Source: an uncultured Candidatus Saccharibacteria bacterium (GTDB lineage: Bacteria; Patescibacteriota; Minisyncoccia; Phycocordibacterales; DATDWN01). From it: a stretch of DNA of 64,000 bases. This document shows positions 36,568-49,262 of this stretch, piece after piece; within the stretch, counting starts at the first letter, position 1; every line of letters begins with the position of its first letter. The notes beneath the pieces are model-generated. The model had not been told where the DNA came from and did no database searches. It saw only the letters and a program-made list of their open reading frames with translations. Location of the stretch: the NCBI GenBank assembly GCA_964608465.1, contig CAZSNI010000001.1:16215-80214 (forward strand). The letters are read 5' to 3'. Position numbers and translations under genes: made by a program.

Positions 36568-37281
36568 CTAATTATTCCCCCAGCCTCTTCCACTTCCGCC
36601 TGAACCATTTTCTTTCGGTGACGCTATTATACTTTCATACTCCTGTTCTGTTATGTATTCTGGCTTATATGTAACTCCTCGTGACTTCAACTGAGAAACA
36701 AAAGACCTCAAGTGGTTTCTAGATCCTCGCATCAAATTTTCATATACCAGTTTTATATCCTCGTTGTCTGTTTTAGAAATATTATTTTGTAAGTCCATTA
36801 TGTCCAGGTCTTCAATAAACGCACCAACAGACAGCGCTTCTTCTACAGAAACTTCTCCTCGTTTTACTAGATCATCAAAAAGTTTTTTCAATTCTGCATT
36901 TACAAACACTCCCACCGTATCGTTAGTTACCGGATCTTTAATATTGTATTTCACAAGTATCGCTCGCACAGCTTCGGTGTGAGTTTGTTCACTTTGTGAA
37001 ATGTTTGAAAATATTGGCACTCCCCACTTTTCAAATAATGTTATGTACACATCTCGCGCCAGCTTCTCCTCCTCTCGCATATATAGTAGCCCTTGTTTTT
37101 CATCTTCTGATATAGCTTGTGTAGGCAGAGCACTTACTCCAGGTCTTACTGACAAGAAATCCGAAGGCAACGGCACACTATCCGATGCCTGGTCCACATC
37201 AGCACTATTTTGCTTAGTAAACACATACGCTGAGGTTAATAAAACCACAAGAATTATGATAATTTTGGTTGTTGTTTTCAT
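36568..37281 (-). CDS. DUF2202 ferritin-like-superfamily protein with N-terminal TM
   Basis: LYMREEEKLARDVY...RGSRNHLRSF. Start set at MKTTTKIIIIL. Confidence 0.65.
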   Translation of the reverse strand: MKTTTKIIIILVVLLTSAYVFTKQNSADVDQASDSVPLPSDFLSVRPGVSALPTQAISEDEKQGLLYMREEEKLARDVYITLFEKWGVPIFSNISQSEQTHTEAVRAILVKYNIKDPVTNDTVGVFVNAELKKLFDDLVKRGEVSVEEALSVGAFIEDLDIMDLQNNISKTDNEDIKLVYENLMRGSRNHLRSFVSQLKSRGVTYKPEYITEQEYESIIASPKENGSGGSGRGWGNN

Positions 37282-37297
37282 ACCTACATTATACCAC

Positions 37298-38560
37298 TTA
37301 TAGGAAAAGTAAGTCGCGGTCGAGATCATCGGAGTCTGTGCCAAGAGTTTTAGTTTTTATTGCTTTGTCGGTGCTACCTAGATGCACCACACCTTTGCCG
37401 AACTTTTTTTCTAGATTGTCTATCTGTTTGTGTATGGTTTCAAACTTCGTGGTTTTTTCTATTGTGCCAAACAAGTCCCCTTGTTTTACATCTTCTGGTT
37501 CAAGCTCGTGCAAAGTGACTCCGGTGGTGCGATACAGCACACCCGCACGCCAAAGTTTAGGCAAATGGAACTTCGCAATGCTGACCAGAGTTTCTGGTGC
37601 GTTTGAGGGTGTTGTCAGCGCAACTGTGTGTGAGAAATATTTGAAATCTTTTGTTTTCAAAAAGAAAGAAAACTTTTTTGGCACGAGGTTAAAGTAGCGA
37701 GCTTTGCGACAAGCTTCTTCTGTGTGTTTGGATATCTGCGACATGAGAAATGTCTTGTCGTTCGTATTGGGGTGAAACGAGCGAGTTTTCTGGACTGACG
37801 AGTAAGTTGTTTTTGGTTTTGGATCAACATTGTGGACACAGACACCGTTTAACTCCAGCCATATTTCTATATATGGTTTTGAAAAGTTGTCACGAACCCA
37901 TGTCATATCTTTGCTGGCAAAATCCTGTGCTGTTTTTATTCCGCGGTGTACCAAGTTTTCTCCAGTACGAGGACCAATCCCCCAGATTTTATCTATTGCT
38001 GTTTGCGAAAGGAACTCTGAAATGTTTTCTTTTTCTATTATTGTTAGTCCATCTGGCTTTTTCCATTTGGATGCAACTTTTGCCAAAACTTTTGTGGGAG
38101 CGAGTCCAATAGAAACAGAAAGTCCAAGCTCCTCCGTCACTTCTTTTTTTATTCTCTCGGCGATTTGTCTGTATGACATGTACAGCGGTTTATCGAGTCC
38201 AGTCAGATCTGCAAAACATTCATCTATGCTGTATTCCTCCACATCGTCGGCGTATCTGCGAACGATATCAAACATTTTTTCGGAATACATTACGTATGAG
38301 GCGTAGTCACCAGGCAAAACCAAAACTGTCGGGAAATTTTTCTTCACACGGAAAATAGGCATACCTCGTGTTATGCCGAGAGCTTTGGCTTCGTATGAAA
38401 GTGCAGAAACAATCCCACGCTCCTGCCCGGTCACAACTGGAAGTCCTTTTAGTTTCGGATTTTTCGCCACCTCGCATCCGACAAAAAAGGCATCCCCATC
38501 CATATGAAAAATTACCCTATTCCGTTTCACCCCTATATTATACAGTGAACTATAGTTCAC
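37298..38560 (-). CDS. dinB: Y-family DNA polymerase IV
   Basis: FHMDGDAFFVGCEV...SIDECFAD...SVSIGLAPTKVLAKVAS. Confidence 0.85.
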   Translation of the reverse strand: MNYSSLYNIGVKRNRVIFHMDGDAFFVGCEVAKNPKLKGLPVVTGQERGIVSALSYEAKALGITRGMPIFRVKKNFPTVLVLPGDYASYVMYSEKMFDIVRRYADDVEEYSIDECFADLTGLDKPLYMSYRQIAERIKKEVTEELGLSVSIGLAPTKVLAKVASKWKKPDGLTIIEKENISEFLSQTAIDKIWGIGPRTGENLVHRGIKTAQDFASKDMTWVRDNFSKPYIEIWLELNGVCVHNVDPKPKTTYSSVQKTRSFHPNTNDKTFLMSQISKHTEEACRKARYFNLVPKKFSFFLKTKDFKYFSHTVALTTPSNAPETLVSIAKFHLPKLWRAGVLYRTTGVTLHELEPEDVKQGDLFGTIEKTTKFETIHKQIDNLEKKFGKGVVHLGSTDKAIKTKTLGTDSDDLDRDLLFL

Positions 38561-38873: not shown

Positions 38874-39434
38874 ATGAATGAAGAAATAAAAAGACTTGAA
38901 GATAAAATAGATGACCTATTTCAGAAGTTAACTAATAAGCAGAACTCTCAGTTTACAGAGCTTATTACTGAAATAAGAAGAGTTGGTGACATAGTTGAAA
39001 GTAAGAAAGAAGATTCATACGAAGAGGGTGTATTTGACGATCTCTATGATGAGGCTAAAGAAATTGTAATTGAAGAACAAAAAGCTTCATCGTCATATCT
39101 ACAAAGAAAACTTGGAATTGGATACTCTAGAGCTGTTGCACTTATTGACGCACTAGAGAAAGAAGGAATTATCGGATCTAGTGATGGTGCAAAACCGAGA
39201 GAAGTCTTAGAGAAATCTACTGAACCTAAAGTCTTTACTGATACAAGTGATGATGATTTATATGAAGAAGCAAAAAAGATAACATTAGAAGCCGGTAAAG
39301 TTTCAACTTCTTATTTACAAAGAAAACTTGGTATTGGATATGCTCGTTCTGCTCGTCTAATGGATATGTTGGAAGAAAATGGAGTAATTGAACCTGGTAA
39401 TGGAGCGGGTACAAGAAAGGTAATTGCTAGTTAA
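38874..39434 (+). CDS. standalone protein with N-terminal coiled coil and two tandem FtsK-gamma (winged-helix) domains
   Basis: Two repeats of D.LY.EAK..V......S.SYLQRKLGIGY.R.A.L.D.LE..G.IG...GAKPREVL. Confidence 0.7.
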   Translation: MNEEIKRLEDKIDDLFQKLTNKQNSQFTELITEIRRVGDIVESKKEDSYEEGVFDDLYDEAKEIVIEEQKASSSYLQRKLGIGYSRAVALIDALEKEGIIGSSDGAKPREVLEKSTEPKVFTDTSDDDLYEEAKKITLEAGKVSTSYLQRKLGIGYARSARLMDMLEENGVIEPGNGAGTRKVIAS

Positions 39435-39449
39435 AAAACCCATCCATTT

Positions 39450-40211
39450 TTATTTTGAAACAATATCGTCATAATATCTTGTAACCTCTTCATCCATCAG
39501 TGAAGCAAAAAGATATGTTGTTTCAACTATGCTTTTATGGAGCATAAAACTCTCATTACTAAACTTATTCAAAGTCGCCTCAAGCTTAGATTTATGCTTT
39601 TGTAATTCATAAAGTGCTAACTCACCAAATGGGCCACCATGTACGCTTGATGACATATTCGTATACTCAATTAGTCTTTCTAACAGATATTCTTCTTTAT
39701 ATCTTTTTATAATTTCACTGCCTTTTTCGTTATTATTGTTTATTAAATAATGAAAAATTTCTTTGATATCAAATTTTTTAGCAACATCCCCCAATGCCTT
39801 ATTGTGTTCACCTTTAGTATTCCACTCTGTTTTTTCTGGATAAACTAATTTATTGTAATTAATAATTTTTTGAAAAGATTTCAAATCTTCATAACCTTTA
39901 AGAGATTTGTAATATGCCTCACCGATAGAATCATCATTATCGTTCAAAGCTTTCGCAAAAATATATAGATGCTTAAAACTATGCTCAATAAGAGATCGAA
40001 ACAAAATTGAAGCAGAATATGCGTCTCCATTTTTACAAGAAAGTAGAATTGAATTTGTTAAATAACCACTTTTTGGTATAAAAGATACAAGTGCCTTTCC
40101 TGAATATTTAAATTTAGTCTTTTGTAAAGATTCTATAATGAAGGGGAGTGATTCTTGAATTTTTTTAGATAAAACTTCATTCAATACTAAATTATTATCG
40201 ATATCATTCAT
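39450..40211 (-). CDS. hypothetical protein of the candidate defence operon; Rx4H (HEPN-like) motif
   Basis: 253 aa. FRSLIEH motif. No other recognisable signature. Fourth gene of the tight operon. Confidence 0.45.
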   Translation of the reverse strand: MNDIDNNLVLNEVLSKKIQESLPFIIESLQKTKFKYSGKALVSFIPKSGYLTNSILLSCKNGDAYSASILFRSLIEHSFKHLYIFAKALNDNDDSIGEAYYKSLKGYEDLKSFQKIINYNKLVYPEKTEWNTKGEHNKALGDVAKKFDIKEIFHYLINNNNEKGSEIIKRYKEEYLLERLIEYTNMSSSVHGGPFGELALYELQKHKSKLEATLNKFSNESFMLHKSIVETTYLFASLMDEEVTRYYDDIVSK

Positions 40212-40229
40212 ATGTTCTTAAAATTTTTC

Positions 40230-41156
40230 CTATAAAACAATATCTACGAATCTTACTATTTTATTTTTCTCCCAATCCATAATTTTGACATACTTTCCAT
40301 TGTGTTTATCTGGTCGATTAAATTTACAACCTTCACACTCATGTTCTTCAACAATAGCTGGTATTTCCCCGAACAGTGTAAGTTTACTTGGAGTAACCGT
40401 ATTTTCGTGATGACAGCTCATAGGAACTACATACTTAAGTCCATCCATTTGAAAAATATTCCAGCTTATAATTTCAGCAAACTCCTTTTGAATTGAAATT
40501 GATGGAGGTATTTTAAACTTTGCCTCATGATAATCTATAAGAGTGTAGAGTAAATTTTCACGTGCAAGTAGTACATTATCCCCTTGCCATTCATATCCAT
40601 AACTTGCTTTGAATGCTTCTTTTGCCCAAAAAATCCAATCATCCTTATCTTTGCAATATTTAGATACGACTTTTAATTTTTTATCTAAAAAACCCACTCG
40701 ATTATCTAATTTTATTATTCTGTCAGTATTTGCAGTTGGATTGTATCTAGTTACAATAAATGGAGCCTCTCCGCATGTAATTTCTAGTTTGAGCTCATGA
40801 ACATAATTTTGCCAATTCTTTTTATCCACCCTTTTCCCATGTAAATCCATAACCTTATTTATCCGGTCAATAATCTTGAGCGGAGTAAAAACCTCAGCCT
40901 TATCTTTTGTACGTTTACGTTGTTCCACTATATTCTTAGCGGCACGCGGCTGAATAAGCATTCCGTATTTGCCAGTTACAAATTCTGACAAAATGTGATT
41001 TTTAGGCAAAAATTTATTGCCACGATCTTCATAAGAATCGGTTGCCCAAATGATATTCTTCTTAGTTGTACGATCAATTAGTAAAATGCTCAGCAAATCA
41101 CCTGTTCTGCGCAGATAACTTTCTATAATATCAATATTTGGCAGGAGTACATTCAT
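40230..41156 (-). CDS. hypothetical protein of the candidate defence operon; possible PD-(D/E)xK nuclease with C-terminal Cys/His cluster
   Basis: 308 aa. ...PLKIID...HELKLE... and CHHEN...ECEGCK. Sits 3 nt downstream of the giant gene. Confidence 0.45.
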   Translation of the reverse strand: MNVLLPNIDIIESYLRRTGDLLSILLIDRTTKKNIIWATDSYEDRGNKFLPKNHILSEFVTGKYGMLIQPRAAKNIVEQRKRTKDKAEVFTPLKIIDRINKVMDLHGKRVDKKNWQNYVHELKLEITCGEAPFIVTRYNPTANTDRIIKLDNRVGFLDKKLKVVSKYCKDKDDWIFWAKEAFKASYGYEWQGDNVLLARENLLYTLIDYHEAKFKIPPSISIQKEFAEIISWNIFQMDGLKYVVPMSCHHENTVTPSKLTLFGEIPAIVEEHECEGCKFNRPDKHNGKYVKIMDWEKNKIVRFVDIVL

Positions 41157-41159
41157 AAC

Positions 41160-44100
41160 TTAAGCCATAGGTTTTACATTCTTATCAATAAATTCAATTT
41201 CATTTTTATCTAGATTATATTTCTTATACAACTGCTTATCTATTTCAGGAATAGATTTAGACCAATCAATATCCGATTTTTTTGTAAAATCTTGAATTGG
41301 TACTTTTAACCAGGTTCTGGGTGAATTATCTTGTGTAATTTTAAGCACACCCAACATAATCCTTGAGAACTTTGTTTTAATATACTTCTGTAAATTCTCG
41401 GCTTCTTTTTTATTATTAAACGCGCCCATACTTAAAAAGGTTTGGGTATGTCCGACATTTTCACCCTCAATAGTTGAAGTTCCTAAAGTTCCGAAATCAC
41501 CACTACCATTTGATTTTGGTATTAAAACTTTAAATTTATCTAAGTTTAGGTGTTTTTCTAGATATTTTCGAGAGACCCACTTATAGACACGTTTACCATT
41601 AATTAATCCAAGAATTTTTGCGTCACTATCAGAATTTGAATCATCCCTAAATATATTGATTTGTTCGAATATAGAAGTGGTTAAACGTTTTTCCTTACCA
41701 CCACTTCCAATTATTTTTTTAAAATGAGGATGCTCTTTATATAAAACCCCAAGATTAAATTTATTCTGTAGATACATTATTTTATTCAATGACTCAAAAT
41801 ACTTATGATCTTCGACTTTTTCTCGTATTGTGTTAAGTTCTGGGTGGCTAGTAAAAGAACCTATTTCCCCAAAATCTTTGTTAGTATCACGGTAAGTTAT
41901 TGCAATCCCCCCTTTAATGTCCGTGTTTGGAAAAACTTTGGATGATTGTTGCTCGTAAAAAATAACTTTAATATGTCTATCATTTAATATCTTATTATTC
42001 CATTCTTTTGGGGTTTTTCCTGCATTAAATAAAAAACGTGCTGGATGGATTAATGCTACCTTGTCAGACAATTTGTAAGATTCATCCATAAATAGATGGT
42101 AAATTGGCTTATCGCTAGTATCCTTAGTCTGTTCTTGATACGGTGGATTTCCTACTATGGCAGTAAATTTCATTTCTTTATTATTAAAATTAAATTTTTC
42201 TAATAATTCTACACTAATATTATAATCCTTATAGCTACCTTTATGCTGAAGTTTTTTTACCAAATCTTCAATATAAACAATATTTGTCTCAAAACTTTGA
42301 TTATACCCTGCCAATGTTCTCCGAGTAATACTTTTGGCCATTGGACTCTTGCATAGCACATAAATATTTTCTTGTAACACTTTACTCCACAACTGTTTAT
42401 ATATTTTTTCCTCCGGTTTTTTATTCTTTTTGTCTTTTATCAGCTGTCTTGAATACACATTATAAGCCGCTAGTAATGGATACAGACCAGATTTTGAATT
42501 TATCTCAAGTATCTTTGTGTTGTCTTGTGACCAGATACTAGTATCGACACCATGACTACTTTTCCATTCGGGTTTTTCTCTAGACTTGTCCATTCCACCG
42601 CTAGCAAAATCGTGGCCGCCGAAAGCTTTGGTCATATGCATATTCACGACACTCCATGGGGTAAGAACTGTTTCTTTATCTGGGTTCTTAAATGTTTTAA
42701 ATATTTCGGAGATAGCTTGTATTCTCTCTGTTGGTAATAGATCATCACAATCAAATGCCTTGGCACGGATACTGTGTGCTACACCCTTAAATACATCCTC
42801 GTCGTAATATTTTATGAACTCACCGAAACCTTTTTTAGTCAGTCCAGGTGGCATAAATTCTTGCCAGGACTCTTCGTCAACTAGGTCAATAAATTTTTGA
42901 AGCGTAATATTTTCTCGAATAGACACATCGGCACCATAGACTAACATTGGCATACGAATACTCACTGCGCGCAATATGCTAATGGCCGTTTTCTTTTGAT
43001 CACGAACTTCTTTTAGTTTTTTTAATACTTCTTTTTGTTCTTCGGTTAAATCTTGTTTTTTCTTCCGCTCGACTTCTTCAGCTTTTTGAATTTTGAGGTC
43101 ATCCATACCAAGTTCATTAACCTTGATTTCATTCACTTTTTCAGTTGAGGATTTACCAACGATAGCTTTAAGTGCATTAAACCTGTCGATGTCCACTTTG
43201 TCGAGTTTCAACAATTCATCGTTATATAGCTTTGGATCGTCAAAGCCGTTTCGACTCACGCGTTCGATAATTGCTTTTTTAAGCTGACTAAGCATATTCT
43301 CAACATCATAAGGTTTCATTGATCCACCTTTCGCAGAAAGAATCGGACAGAAATTTAGAAACTCCCTCATCGCATCTTTCTGCTCAGGTGAATTTATTTT
43401 TCCTGATTTATGGCTAAGCTCCACAGCTTCAGCAATTAATTTTAGGGTCCGATCTGGTGCAAAATCAAACACATATCCTTGAGTCTTTAGTCTCCCATTT
43501 ATTATTGCAGGGGTCTGACAGCGAAATGCTGTTTGCAAATATGTAGTAGCAGAGCTAGTGTCTGACATCATGAAAACTGCTGTCCATTCAGGAACAGAAG
43601 CTCCTGTTGTGAGACGTTGGCCTGTCAGTGTAATAGTATACTCATGATTTTTAATTGCTTTAGTTACACGGTCCTTTGCAACTTTATCCTCCTCATCATC
43701 GCGACTATCACCAGAAATATTTACAACACCAAATTCATTAGAACCAAAAACTTGGTGGCCTTTAAGTAGCTTTTCCATTGCCTCTATAACTTTTACACGA
43801 TTTGGCAGCAGCCATAGCGAATGTTTATTGTAATTTCGATATTCTTCTGTCACATATGGAAACTTTGTTTGTAACTTATCATCCACTAGTAAATCTAAAA
43901 ATTTTTTTACCATTGCCTCGTGAACAAATTCAGCTATATCATTTTCATCTTCATCCTTGCGTACTCGGAAAAATTCATGAAATTTAAAAGCACCATCAAG
44001 AGAGTCATGAAAATTTTCACCTATACTACCAATATGATTGGCGAATGTATCCACATCATAAGTAAATATACTTAATGCTGGAAGTCCCGCATATGGATTT

Positions 44101-45176
44101 GGTACACCAGGATTTTTTTCATCCCATGTAAGCTTTGCTTCTTGCTCCATAACATAATCCCATGTAAAAATATCCTCCTTTTCGTGCTTATGCAGAATAT
44201 TGAATGGGGTCCCAGAAAGTTGAAGAGTAAACTTGGTTGGTATTTTTAAGAAAGTGGTATCGCCAAGGTTACTTTGAGTTCCTTCATGAGCCTCATCAAT
44301 AATTAACATATCCCAACTGGTATCAAAAACTTCATCATTTTTATCAAATCCCTTAGCCTTAGATCCAGATGATTCATCTTCCACTACACGTTTCGACAAG
44401 CGTAAATCTTGCAATGAAGCAAAATATACAAAAGGTTTATTTCCTCTGCTAAGAGTTTTTATATGCTCTCCTACTGTTACAGAAGAAAAATCGTAATTTG
44501 CACCTGCTAATATTTTATTATAATCATCATACCAATCACTACTAACACTCGGACGGTGTGTGACGATAAGAACCTTTTTCATTTCATTCTCTTTTGCAAC
44601 TTGCATAGCTGCGGAGGTTTTACCAAATCGCATCTTTGCATTCCAAAGAAAGTGTTTACGATTTTTCTTTATTGCTTGAGTAGTTTTATTTATAGCTTCA
44701 AGTTGATTTGGTCTAAATTGAAAATCAGAAATAACTGGAATTGCTTTCTCTTTTGTTGATAAAGCAATTCTATCTTCTTTTACAGCTTGAATTGCATTTT
44801 TTGCAATTTCTAAACTAATCTCAAACCATTCAGAATGTGAATTTTTAATATTTTCTGCCTTACGCTCAAAGCCAGAACGCTTAAGAACTTCATGTACGTC
44901 ATAGTCTGAAAAATATTTACCATCGTTTGTGATCGCTATTTCAACATGTTCAAGAGTGTAAGGTATATCTGCAGTTTTTGTTTGTTGTTCTATACGCTTA
45001 CGTGCAGCAGCATTTAACTCATCAAGTGTTGGGTTTTTAGAATTAATTGTTGCAGCACCAATTTTTAGTCTACCTTTATGCACTTCGCCCGGAATTGAAT
45101 ACACATAAATCAATCCAAAAGAAAAAGTTTCATGTATATTATTATTTAGAATAATTTCTTTAACATTTGTATTCAT
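41160..45176 (-). CDS. 1338-aa fusion of T5orf172 (GIY-YIG-like) domain, SF2 helicase (Res-like) and N6-adenine methyltransferase-like domain, with C-terminal extension. Type ISP-like R-M candidate.
   Basis: N-terminus GLIYVYSIPGEVHKGRLKIGAAT...EWFEI. Walker A FGKTSAAM. DEAH LIIDEAHEG. SGTPF. QTAFRCQT. Motif I-like ILEINSKSGLYPL. Motif IV IVGNPPYQ. About 320 aa follow the NPPY. Confidence 0.8.
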   Translation of the reverse strand: MNTNVKEIILNNNIHETFSFGLIYVYSIPGEVHKGRLKIGAATINSKNPTLDELNAAARKRIEQQTKTADIPYTLEHVEIAITNDGKYFSDYDVHEVLKRSGFERKAENIKNSHSEWFEISLEIAKNAIQAVKEDRIALSTKEKAIPVISDFQFRPNQLEAINKTTQAIKKNRKHFLWNAKMRFGKTSAAMQVAKENEMKKVLIVTHRPSVSSDWYDDYNKILAGANYDFSSVTVGEHIKTLSRGNKPFVYFASLQDLRLSKRVVEDESSGSKAKGFDKNDEVFDTSWDMLIIDEAHEGTQSNLGDTTFLKIPTKFTLQLSGTPFNILHKHEKEDIFTWDYVMEQEAKLTWDEKNPGVPNPYAGLPALSIFTYDVDTFANHIGSIGENFHDSLDGAFKFHEFFRVRKDEDENDIAEFVHEAMVKKFLDLLVDDKLQTKFPYVTEEYRNYNKHSLWLLPNRVKVIEAMEKLLKGHQVFGSNEFGVVNISGDSRDDEEDKVAKDRVTKAIKNHEYTITLTGQRLTTGASVPEWTAVFMMSDTSSATTYLQTAFRCQTPAIINGRLKTQGYVFDFAPDRTLKLIAEAVELSHKSGKINSPEQKDAMREFLNFCPILSAKGGSMKPYDVENMLSQLKKAIIERVSRNGFDDPKLYNDELLKLDKVDIDRFNALKAIVGKSSTEKVNEIKVNELGMDDLKIQKAEEVERKKKQDLTEEQKEVLKKLKEVRDQKKTAISILRAVSIRMPMLVYGADVSIRENITLQKFIDLVDEESWQEFMPPGLTKKGFGEFIKYYDEDVFKGVAHSIRAKAFDCDDLLPTERIQAISEIFKTFKNPDKETVLTPWSVVNMHMTKAFGGHDFASGGMDKSREKPEWKSSHGVDTSIWSQDNTKILEINSKSGLYPLLAAYNVYSRQLIKDKKNKKPEEKIYKQLWSKVLQENIYVLCKSPMAKSITRRTLAGYNQSFETNIVYIEDLVKKLQHKGSYKDYNISVELLEKFNFNNKEMKFTAIVGNPPYQEQTKDTSDKPIYHLFMDESYKLSDKVALIHPARFLFNAGKTPKEWNNKILNDRHIKVIFYEQQSSKVFPNTDIKGGIAITYRDTNKDFGEIGSFTSHPELNTIREKVEDHKYFESLNKIMYLQNKFNLGVLYKEHPHFKKIIGSGGKEKRLTTSIFEQINIFRDDSNSDSDAKILGLINGKRVYKWVSRKYLEKHLNLDKFKVLIPKSNGSGDFGTLGTSTIEGENVGHTQTFLSMGAFNNKKEAENLQKYIKTKFSRIMLGVLKITQDNSPRTWLKVPIQDFTKKSDIDWSKSIPEIDKQLYKKYNLDKNEIEFIDKNVKPMA

Positions 45177-45178
45177 AA

Positions 45179-46015
45179 TTATTTTCTCAAATTATCATCC
45201 AAGGTATTTCCAGCATCATCTTTCCAAGCTGTCCAACCATTAATTGGCCTCCCCGTGGTGGTTGCAGCTGCCGCAGATGGACTTTTAAATAAAATATCTT
45301 TTGTATAAACGTATGACATTTTATCACCTACTTCTACAAAGGTACCATCTTCCAGAAATCGTTTGCGAGCAGCTTGTGACCATCCCCAAAAAGCTTCCGT
45401 TTCTCTTATGCGAGCAGTAGATCCCTTTAATACATTAAGACTGCCATCTGCAAGTAGTTGGGCCTTTGCATCTGCCCCTTCTGCTTTCAGGAAATAAATT
45501 TTTTCATCAGTAATTGATTCGGCGACAGTTTCAAATACTTCATAACCAATTGCGCCAAGTATAAATTGCATATTCTCAAAATACTGCTCAACTGTGACTT
45601 TTTCAAATTCTGATAGAGTATTTTCTTGTGGTTGAACTTTATTCTGCACAAGCATTCGGTTTGCGTCGTGAGCAGTTGTTGTAGTTTTGTATTCTAGATA
45701 TTTAACAAATGCTCTATTTAATCCACCTGTAAAAACAACCGCAATGTTCCAAAAATCTTTATTTGAATCATGGTTAGAAATCCTACTATAAAAATTTTCA
45801 GATTCACCGATATAAACAAGCTCATCTGAAGAACTCTCGTCTATTCCAAATAATAAATAGAGTCCTGGCTTATTTACCTCAGGGCGATCTTTTAATTCCT
45901 TTAAACTTTGACGAGGCACTACAAAACACTTGCCTGACCAACCTGCAAGATCAATTATTTTCATTCCATTTGGATTTCCTTCAGGAACGAGCATTTGTAA
46001 GGCCTTAGATTTCAT
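45179..46015 (-). CDS. GIY-YIG nuclease-family protein (DUF4357-like C-terminus), first gene of the candidate defence operon
   Basis: KPGLYLLFG...DELVYIGESENFYSRISNHD. Start trimmed to MKSKALQ so the ORF no longer overlaps the upstream gene. A 2-nt gap separates it from the next gene. Confidence 0.65.
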   Translation of the reverse strand: MKSKALQMLVPEGNPNGMKIIDLAGWSGKCFVVPRQSLKELKDRPEVNKPGLYLLFGIDESSSDELVYIGESENFYSRISNHDSNKDFWNIAVVFTGGLNRAFVKYLEYKTTTTAHDANRMLVQNKVQPQENTLSEFEKVTVEQYFENMQFILGAIGYEVFETVAESITDEKIYFLKAEGADAKAQLLADGSLNVLKGSTARIRETEAFWGWSQAARKRFLEDGTFVEVGDKMSYVYTKDILFKSPSAAAATTTGRPINGWTAWKDDAGNTLDDNLRK

Positions 46016-46115
46016 ATTGTTCCAAAACTGTACCACTTTTATCCCCAGCAATCCAGTTAGTGAAAATCTACTCAACCGGACAAGCATTCCCGCCAATTGC
46101 GGTTTAAAACCAAAA

Positions 46116-46763
46116 TTATTTAATATCCACCTGAACCTCATTCCGAAGCATAAAAGGCAAGGTCCAAGGAGGGTTGAATCTAGCAATGTTTACCGCGCCC
46201 ACTGGCACTACACCATCTCGTTTGAGTGATGCCAAAAGTGACTCTTCGTTCTTGCGAAGTCTTGTTTCATTTACTACCCAAGTAAACCTCCTTACTGCGA
46301 CTTTTCTAGATGGAACCTGTATAAGTGACACGCGAGAGTCGTTTGGTATTGGCAGGGCATCCATAGTGTATTCACTTGGCAAAACAAATGATACTTTATA
46401 TGAACCCTTCTCCGCCTGCTCAGTATTCACCGGAACTGTCATCGCTATTTTTTCAGAATTTGTTTTTTCTGTATTTACTGGAGCCGTCATTGCTATCTTA
46501 TCTTTCTTTTTGTTGTCTCCAAAAATGTATCCGGCAACTATTGGGAAGCCTTTCCTTACCGCATCATCTCTGTCTACCGCACCAGAAATAACTGTTTCAG
46601 CAAGTATGTATGAGTTGTACTGCCGTATCTCGTATCCATCTGCCTTACTCACCACAGAGTACTTTGGCTCTTCAATATTTCTAACAGAAAGCCAACTATA
46701 TAGAAACCAAATAAGGAGCACTAAACCCAAAGTAATTAAAATATACATTGTTTTATTATTCAT
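46116..46763 (-). CDS. SOUL heme-binding-family protein with N-terminal TM
   Basis: EEPKYSVVSKADGYEIRQY...FGDNKKKDKIAMTAPV pattern of the SOUL/HBP family. Confidence 0.65.
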   Translation of the reverse strand: MNNKTMYILITLGLVLLIWFLYSWLSVRNIEEPKYSVVSKADGYEIRQYNSYILAETVISGAVDRDDAVRKGFPIVAGYIFGDNKKKDKIAMTAPVNTEKTNSEKIAMTVPVNTEQAEKGSYKVSFVLPSEYTMDALPIPNDSRVSLIQVPSRKVAVRRFTWVVNETRLRKNEESLLASLKRDGVVPVGAVNIARFNPPWTLPFMLRNEVQVDIK

Positions 46764-46802
46764 ACCTACATTCTAGCATTTTTGAATAGGTTTTATCTGA
46801 AA

Positions 46803-48970: not shown

Positions 48971-49033
48971 AATAAAATTATAACAAATTATTCTTTCTGC
49001 GGATGGTACAGGACTTAAACCTTATAAACAAAG

Positions 49034-49120
49034 CGGAGAGTAGGAGATTTGAACTCCTGAGGGAATTTCTTCCCTACCCGCTTTCCAAGCGAGCGCACTA
49101 GACCGCTATGCGAACTCTCC
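49034..49120 (-). tRNA. tRNA-Ser (anticodon GGA), long variable arm, CCA not encoded
   Basis: GGAGAGTTCGCATAGCGGTCTAGTGCGCTCGCTTGGAAAGCGGGTAGGGAAGAAATTCCCTCAGGAGTTCAAATCTCCTACTCTCCG. All four stems pair. Confidence 0.8.
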
Positions 49121-49237
49121 GCTTTATTTATAAACTTTCCAACGTAGGTCACGAATAATTTTTTGCTAAAAATTTTCTTGACCACACCTCGCACCGACGT
49201 GCTCCGGTTTTGAAATGTCCCTAACCCACATTTCAAC

Positions 49238-49262
49238 ACCAGACCGCTATGCGAACCATCCA
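49238..49262 (-). repeat. duplicate of the tRNA-Ser 5' half (acceptor 5' strand plus D-arm), 22/25 identical
   Basis: Minus strand GGATGGTTCGCATAGCGGTCTGGTG versus the tRNA GGAGAGTTCGCATAGCGGTCTAGTG. Followed by an unrelated 9-bp-stem hairpin. Confidence 0.7.

Follow-up and report, generated by a model that had tools for sequence, protein, structure and literature searches.

The window analyzed here is a stretch of 64,000 nucleotides (nt) from an uncultured Candidatus Saccharibacteria bacterium (contig CAZSNI010000001.1), and it contains a block of four closely spaced genes, named g1 to g4, the core of which is formed by g2 and g3 only. The explanation that we favour, and that we consider fairly probable, is that g2 and g3 encode a two-gene, ATP-dependent restriction-modification (R-M) system whose methylase is assembled in trans, with g1 and g4 as riders. 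A first-pass annotation of the sequence had described the block as a candidate defence operon, in which a giant protein, the product of g2, is joined by three dedicated accessory genes. Our analyses support the R-M- or defence-like character of the locus. Of the three supposed accessory genes, however, only g3 proved to be dedicated to g2. The coordinates of the genes and of the parts of g2 are given in Table 1.

The neighbourhoods of related genes were studied in 80 reference-genome loci and 80 viral-contig loci, which were fetched with the g3 family; the open reading frames (ORFs) of these 160 loci were searched with the window proteins and with sub-domains of g2. A helicase gene adjoins the g3-like gene in about 139 of the 160 loci (71/80 in the genome set and about 68/80 in the viral set). 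Within the genome set, a g2-like gene lies beside g3 in 71/80 loci, in either order and with a median gap of 3 nt, and in one locus the two are fused. No g2-like gene was seen in nine of the 80 genome loci. Of these nine, L025 and L041, at the least, are not long enough for a verdict, and L078 has a T5orf172 fragment at the contig end. Each of the two genes is represented by at least 8000 clusters at 90% identity, and the family is found in candidate-phyla bacteria, Bacteroidota and gut Firmicutes, on enterococcal and lactococcal plasmids and on viral contigs. The related loci, some of which are on plasmids or viral contigs, are accompanied by integrases, GmrSD, DUF262, DUF4145 and a helix-turn-helix (HTH) controller-like gene, and the closest g2-g3 homologues are flanked by GmrSD, DUF4145, DUF262 or an unknown 1065-aa protein. 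Unrelated genes are present between the g2-like and g3-like genes of loci L019, L022, L023, L026, L036 and L048. These inserted genes encode a LexA-like peptidase plus NYN, MUG113/T5orf172, Fic, AlbA_2-type, Bro-N-like and DUF1016-type proteins (labels read from the sequence, except for MUG113/T5orf172, which was confirmed by Pfam), and the insertions recall the embedded genes of Type I loci.

The g3 protein is the S-adenosylmethionine (AdoMet)-binding N-terminal half of a gamma adenine methylase. It has no Pfam family, and its PADLOC match is the model "Type II methyltransferase" (6e-93). Its AlphaFold model is confident (pLDDT 91.9) and has a methylase-like, Rossmann-type fold. In an alignment of the g3 family, motifs X (AEVFTP), I (LEITCGEAPF) and III (NxxQMD, which is NIFQMD in g3) contain invariant residues, and motif II (YGYEW) is conserved; g3 additionally carries a Cys-rich insert. 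Motif IV (NPPY) and strands beta4 to beta7 are absent from g3, which stops at the point where full-length relatives go on with MKFDFVIGNPPYQ. In the proteins P0148, P0129 and P0158 (650-717 aa), a g3-like N half leads into MKFDFVIGNPPYQ, and their C half and tail are homologous to the C-terminus of g2. Because a g3-like N half and a g2-like C half are joined in these relatives, we assign g3 as the methylase N half (hereafter N), and g2 as the protein that carries the C half (C) and the recognition domain. In addition, the 226-230-aa "N-6 DNA methylase" genes located beside g2 homologues on plasmids of lactic acid bacteria are g3 homologues (hhalign 98.4%), and these match just the first third of the Pfam profiles N6_Mtase and MmeI_Mtase. 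The first-pass annotation had seen in g3 a PD-(D/E)xK-like pattern. The D...ELK residues and the Cys cluster do exist, yet ELK belongs to methylase motif I (HELKLEITCGEAPF) and the fold is methylase-like, and a PD-(D/E)xK nuclease was therefore rejected for g3. A separate observation concerns P0121 (552 aa), in which a g3-like N half is followed by a 250-aa C-terminal extension without a Pfam match; the extension, in which a D...EVK pattern (AVDYVLPEIAIEVKE) is present, might be a PD-(D/E)xK nuclease.

The g2 protein combines the matches of several enzymes in one chain. Pfam detected T5orf172 (1.1e-5; 26.2 bits, cutoff 20), ResIII (1.8e-16), SWI2_SNF2 (1.7e-4) and Eco57I (2.8e-25), and no match to MmeI_Mtase; the PADLOC matches are REase_MTase_IIG (2.9e-58) and, over aa 1000-1337, MTase_II PDLC03375 (5e-36), and the PHROG match is a DNA helicase (7e-25). 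The Eco57I match bears out the earlier assignment of the NPPY region to a methylase. Conservation of motifs was counted in an alignment of 58 diverse family members from the related loci, and identity along the chain was determined for 99 close homologues against the window protein. Together with Pfam, these two analyses agree with the proposed domain order of T5orf172, superfamily 2 (SF2) motor, gamma methylase and variable recognition region. All g2 motifs that had been quoted are present, and those of the ATPase (Walker A GK[TS], DE, SGT and QxxFRxQ) are found in 58/58 members, as is NPPY; the His of DEAH is found in 57/58. In the T5orf172 domain, K38, G40, R61, D91 and E116 are each conserved in 57/58, H95 in 56/58 and Y24 in 45/58 members, a pattern that fits a GIY-YIG-type domain and suggests, through these conserved residues, that the domain may act as a nuclease. 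The linker that follows the motor has an identity of 0.69-0.9 among close homologues. The C half is homologous to stand-alone C-half proteins, such as gp277 of phage PTm1 (E 1e-44). Identity to the window protein is 0.58-0.90 (mostly at least 0.65) before aa 1080 and falls to 0.22-0.41 at aa 1121-1240 before it recovers, which is the usual signature of a swapped target-recognition domain (TRD). The C-terminal tail is also present in the stand-alone N-C methylases P0148, P0129 and P0158 and in PTm1 gp277.

Between the linker and C, g2 contains a further segment, which we named N'. It has a motif X-like sequence, ETVLTPW, and a motif I-like sequence, (D/E)xxxK[ST]G, with a Lys in the glycine loop. 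T839, E/D891 and G897 are conserved in 58/58 members, P840 in 57/58 and K895 in 55/58. Position 942, corresponding to motif II, is C, P or A and is acidic in 0/58 members. Because the motif II acid is never present and the glycine loop has a conserved Lys, N' looks non-catalytic. When N' was isolated and compared with Pfam, the window copy matched Eco57I with an E of 0.0037 and the variants gave no match; similarity between N' and g3 is confined to motif X (probability 42-60%). Since motif X is all that aligns with N and the Pfam match is weak, we label N' "methylase-half-like".

Comparison of the loci showed that three recurring modules, namely N, C with its TRD, and the nuclease-helicase ending in N' (Hel-N'), travel together and are joined differently across genomes, and that helicase-free N/C forms exist too. 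The arrangement of the window, [N]+[Hel-N'-C], is that of the majority (60 genome and 48 viral loci). The arrangement [N-C]+[Hel-N'] is found in five loci (L169, L173, L179, L182 and L183) and [N]+[C]+[Hel-N'] in ten (for example L150, L158 and L166), while L080 and P0226 represent fused N-Hel forms; N and C are separate genes in L145 as well. Where the helicase protein has no C half, C is joined to N or encoded beside N. A profile of N' made from window-type proteins matches the extreme C-terminus of 14/14 helicase proteins lacking the C half, with values of 1e-23 to 1e-27, from which we conclude that the motor subunit had N' ancestrally. The jumbo phage PTm1 has a helicase-free form, with C (gp277, which starts exactly at MKFDIIVGNPPYQ) and N (gp279) encoded on either side of an HTH gene, and a Fusobacterium phage has a helicase-free, fused N-C form.

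Three side observations were made on these modules. Locus L134 (7021-8775) encodes, adjoining an N-half gene, a 584-aa protein with matches to T5orf172, the linker, N' and C and no helicase match, which looks like a motor-less mini version of g2. In locus L030 (3-3047), where g3 seemingly stands alone, a 1014-aa ORF matches the N' profile weakly (E 1.9e-4); this could be the motor partner in a strongly diverged form. On an Enterococcus faecium conjugative plasmid and in phage PTm1, the N-half gene comes after the gene of a small HTH regulator (L100, 6711-6914; L098, 5792-5992); the regulator resembles the controller (C) proteins of R-M systems, and none is present at the window locus.

Under the two-gene explanation, N, C and Hel-N' would assemble into one complex, to which g3 would contribute AdoMet binding and the C half of g2 the flipping of the adenine and catalysis. 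We place N and C together because full-length N-C methylases of 650-717 aa exist and because PTm1 and L145 have separate N and C genes. The complex would methylate one strand of a short asymmetric site that is read by the variable region. At an unmodified site, the SF2 motor would translocate on the DNA using ATP, and the T5orf172 domain would then nick or cut, by analogy with Type ISP enzymes, which do so on collision; the definition of Type ISP used for this analogy is that of PMC3874165. N', as a pseudo-half without catalytic function, would link the methylase to the motor.

Several points weigh against this explanation. No biochemistry or methylome of any family member was found in the literature, and in Bacillus subtilis the analogous split cluster dnmA-yeeB-yeeC did not protect against phages (PMC9973331). 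What suggests that N' is a methylase half are motifs and weak profile matches. The T5orf172 domain was originally described as a DNA-binding domain; active T5orf172 nucleases have reportedly been studied experimentally in the ICP1/PLE system. Moreover, N' is located directly upstream of C, in the normal order of a methylase, so that N' and C could fold as a complete domain and g3 could have another role. This leads to an alternative that we regard as unlikely, in which g2 needs no partner to be a complete enzyme of the Type ISP kind, in a single chain: N' and C would form an active methylase with an unusual AdoMet site, and g3, not being a catalytic half, would be a regulatory or assembly subunit, for instance a sensor of AdoMet by which the nuclease or the motor is licensed or restrained. 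The motifs of N' and C do follow each other in the canonical order X-I-II-III-IV, the Eco57I profile starts at aa 936, inside N', and runs unbroken through NPPY, and N' retains the invariant TP, the acidic motif I residue, G897 and mostly D971; in the fused form, furthermore, N lies at the far N-terminus by the nuclease, away from C. A single-chain methylase is, however, difficult to reconcile with the 15 loci in which the helicase protein ends in N' without a C half and N is joined to or encoded beside C, so that the working partner of C is N in those loci. The motif II acid missing from N' in all 58 members and the helicase-free N+C pairs and N-C fusions argue in the same direction. It is also conceivable, though in our opinion doubtful, that the duplicated methylase half acts as a physical switch from modification to restriction and back, with C pairing either with N (g3) to methylate or with the motor-tethered, AdoMet-blind N'. 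The C-N' pairing would then couple recognition of the unmethylated adenine to ATP-driven translocation and cleavage by T5orf172, and the permuted architectures would all encode the same three-part exchange, a proposal that we hold with equal reserve.

The remaining alternatives concern the function of the pair and the number of its genes. We consider it improbable that g2 and g3 are not a working restriction system, being instead an epigenetic or orphan methylase with a relic motor or a system that stops phage without cutting DNA, as BREX does. The dnmA-yeeB-yeeC cluster, for which a role of this kind was proposed, which did not protect against any of three phages and which the authors of PMC9973331 called a relic, would fit such a function, as would the nine genome loci with g3 alone. 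On the other hand, the residues of the nuclease domain, the ATPase and NPPY are almost totally conserved over 58 diverse members, and the recognition region is hypervariable; the at least 8000 sequence clusters, with 65-80% identity across phyla, imply mobility under selection; plasmids and viral contigs carry such loci, and other defence genes lie beside them; and homologues of the DnmA cluster affected phage sensitivity in Vibrio, according to the passages of PMC9973331 that cite this work. It is very improbable, finally, that all four genes are one dedicated, undescribed defence operon with g1, g3 and g4 accessory to the giant protein. Their short spacers and the lack of an excess of terminators (see below) suggest co-transcription, g1-like genes recur beside the system, and the g1 and g4 families accompany R-M genes elsewhere. 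The neighbourhood counts nevertheless largely refute this organization: g4 is present in none of the 160 related loci; g1-like genes are present in just 11 of them (7%; 1/80 genome and 10/80 viral loci), usually at another position, directly downstream of the helicase gene; the closest g2-g3 homologues are flanked by GmrSD, DUF4145 or unknown genes instead; and in some loci unrelated genes sit even between g2 and g3.

The outer genes have properties of their own. For g1, Pfam detected GIY-YIG (5.7e-5) and a C-terminal DUF4357 (3.4e-17), and RAMA below the cutoff (1.8e-5); RAMA domains have been proposed by Iyer et al. to be readers of adenine methylation (PMC4738411). Over its full length, g1 matches PDC-S14 of PADLOC (5e-82), an untested candidate whose profiles agree with the GIY-YIG plus DUF4357 architecture of g1. 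Homologues of g1 on plasmids adjoin two Type I R-M loci and a locus with a DEAD-box helicase and a site-specific methyltransferase. The g4 protein matches DUF5677 (5.2e-9) and is predicted to be an all-alpha bundle. It had been linked to HEPN domains through an Rx4H motif; the motif stands, as R72 and H77 (R72-x4-H77) are both invariant in 25 homologues of 46-81% identity, while the HEPN fold is unproven. Homologues of g4 adjoin a C5-methylase-LexA fusion, a PLD-SNF2 plus MmeI-like methylase pair and DpnI. As homologues of g1 and g4 lie beside various R-M genes, these proteins are general R-M companions and not subunits of the g2+g3 system: g1 is a facultative rider, g4 is an independent neighbour, and neither is part of the machine. 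For annotation, close packing is by itself no criterion of a system: of the four genes, two are interchangeable R-M companions.

Some further observations touch these companions. In L091 (4-6404), a g4 homologue follows a PLD-SNF2 helicase (1096 aa) and an MmeI/Eco57I/TaqI_C methylase (1037 aa), which are another helicase-methylase pair, of a different family. In the lactococcal g2 homologue, DUF4145 forms an N-terminal fusion, and in the closest metagenomic relative it is a separate gene directly after g3 (L001, 5566-6165; L097, 6690-7490); DUF4145 seems to recur as a third partner where the window has g4. A relationship between g4 and DUF4145, which flanks or fuses with homologous systems, was rejected (hhalign probability 0.4%).

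The g2/g3 pair resembles several known systems without coinciding with any of them. In g2, one chain holds, in this order, an SF2 translocase, a gamma methylase (NPPY) and a C-terminal TRD; in this it is similar to the Type ISP enzymes LlaGI and LlaBIII, and the Type ISP-like order with a different nuclease that had been noticed earlier is upheld, Pfam placing T5orf172 at the N-terminus. The pair differs from these enzymes in that the nuclease is T5orf172/GIY-YIG-like and not Mrr/PD-(D/E)xK, with no match to a PD-(D/E)xK family; that g2 and g3 are not a single polypeptide, the separate half-methylase gene being conserved; and that g2 has the extra pseudo-half N'. There is also no detectable sequence relationship to the solved LlaBIII and LlaGI chains: among all PDB chains, neither phmmer with g2 nor hmmsearch with the family profile matched LlaBIII (4xqk) or LlaGI at E up to 1. 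The [N-C-TRD]+[nuclease-helicase] variants are, like the Type III enzymes Mod and Res, a methylase paired with a motor-nuclease. The Type III methylase, Mod, is of the beta class, the nuclease of Res is a C-terminal PD-ExK domain, and no homology was found; as in Type III, the family likely recognizes an asymmetric site and methylates one strand. Methylase catalytic domains encoded as two polypeptides are also known from M.AquI and M.EcoHK31I, which are C5-cytosine methylases of plain Type II systems made of two assembling polypeptides; here, a gamma adenine methylase is split, between motifs III and IV, and its halves are rejoined in various ways to the motor protein.

With the Type IIG enzymes (Eco57I, MmeI and BpuSI), g2 shares the Eco57I domain, the PADLOC model REase_MTase_IIG and the fusion of nuclease, methylase and recognition. 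Type IIG enzymes rely on a PD-ExK nuclease, lack an ATPase and cleave at a fixed distance (PMC3874165), whereas in g2 the ATPase motifs of the 490-aa SF2 motor are fully conserved and T5orf172 stands in place of PD-ExK. The DnmA/YeeA-YeeB-YeeC system was likened to the pair by domain content only: it has a gamma methylase with a TRD, an SF2 helicase and a T5orf172/GIY-YIG protein, and the [N-C]+[Hel-N'] variants follow its two-subunit logic. Here, by contrast, a single protein unites nuclease and helicase, the methylase is of the Eco57I branch (no MmeI_Mtase match for g2) and is split in halves, and a third pseudo-half is located on the motor. Morgan et al. (2009) predicted that this cluster, an MmeI-like methylase with a helicase and a GIY-YIG partner, is an R-M variant with single-strand modification, and noted as uncharacterised both such MmeI-like sets and large single polypeptides with endonuclease, helicase, methylase and TRD (PMC2731913).

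Database searches delimit the family further. None of g1 to g4 has a PADLOC match to signatures of BREX (PglZ, BrxC), DISARM (DrmA/B) or Hma (HmaABC), or a family in NCBIfam, and their PHROGs are a generic helicase, a methylase and unknowns. Sequence searches of the PDB chains with all four proteins gave nothing useful, and those with the g2 and g3 family profiles nothing significant. The variant had been called possibly undescribed. This does not hold in so far as PADLOC models, labelled Type IIG and Type II MTase, cover all three modules, NCBI names the proteins and Morgan et al. (2009) preceded us; it does hold in that our literature searches found no characterised member and no paper on the g2/g3 family, its half-methylase partner or the module permutation. 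We place g2 and g3 in a very abundant, database-labelled R-M family that is uncharacterised in the literature searched; the two-gene core had already been foreseen as a class by Morgan et al. (2009). The architecture, which joins a GIY-YIG-type nuclease and a motor to a methylase made of permutable halves encoded apart, is unusual and has good support.

The pipeline labels "Type IIG" and "methylase" hide an ATP-dependent motor and a non-canonical nuclease. If the two-gene explanation is correct, it would add a motor-driven restriction class of the GIY-YIG superfamily and a natural adenine methylase assembled from separately encoded halves, and the permutation of the modules could reveal the routes by which Type I, III, ISP and IIG architectures change into one another. 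The family probably hampers the genetic manipulation of lactic acid bacteria and gut anaerobes, and it may be a source of new specificities.

Table 1. Coordinates, in the window, of the genes of the block and of the parts of g2.
Feature	Position in protein	Window coordinates	Strand	Details or basis
g1		45179-46015	-	278 aa; start is ATG at 46015
g2		41160-45176	-	1338 aa
g3		40230-41156	-	308 aa; dedicated partner of g2
g4		39450-40211	-	253 aa; DUF5677; independent neighbour outside the system
g2: T5orf172 domain (GIY-YIG superfamily), putative nuclease	aa 21-132	44781..45116	-	Pfam
g2: SF2 helicase/translocase core, 490 aa	aa 150-640	43257..44729	-	ResIII, SWI2_SNF2, PHROG
g2: linker, Lys/Glu-rich, probably coiled-coil	aa 641-830	42687..43256	-	sequence reading; no family match
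g2: N', divergent methylase-N-half-like	aa 831-1000	42177..42686	-	motifs and weak profile matches
g2: C, catalytic half of gamma N6-adenine methylase (MKFTAIVGNPPYQ)	aa 1001-1120	41817..42176	-	Eco57I
g2: hypervariable region, putative target-recognition domain	aa 1121-1240	41457..41816	-	identity drop
g2: conserved C-terminal tail (DIDWSKSIPEIDKQLYKKYNL...)	aa 1241-1338	41160..41456	-	identity back to 0.57-0.74

The layout of the block was confirmed as first described. The four ORFs are on the minus strand with spacers of 2, 3 and 18 nt, and no plus-strand ORF of at least 80 aa is present inside the block. In the list of ORFs, the mechanical reading frame of g1 extends further, to a TTG at 46186. 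The block is AT-rich, with a GC content of 0.29-0.38 versus about 0.38-0.48 in the flanks, and it is bordered by a SOUL gene on one side and by the genes of a double FtsK-gamma protein and DinB/IMS on the other. A scan of positions 39200-46400 found four terminator-like sites versus 4.1 expected, hence no excess, and promoter and terminator scans of the block region were at or below chance. At this locus, g1 and g4 are probably co-transcribed with g2 and g3.

The FtsK-gamma gene (38874-39434, plus strand) is convergent with the block. Its 186-aa product consists of two FtsK-gamma winged-helix domains (Pfam 2.2e-53, two stretches) and is an unusual stand-alone version of the domain that reads FtsK orienting polar sequences (KOPS). 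A search for integration signatures near the block revealed no integrase and no convincing flanking direct repeats. A tRNA-Ser(GGA) gene is located 3 kb upstream of the block (49033-49120, minus strand), and at 49237-49261, 141 nt off, there is a 25-nt copy (88%) of its 5' part that may be a remnant of duplication or integration. Finally, the DUF2202 and SOUL genes, which bracket the dinB/FtsK-gamma/R-M region, share over their start regions a 60-nt stretch of 70% identity (37240-37299 versus 46722-46781), which may be a common promoter or leader plus the start of a signal peptide.

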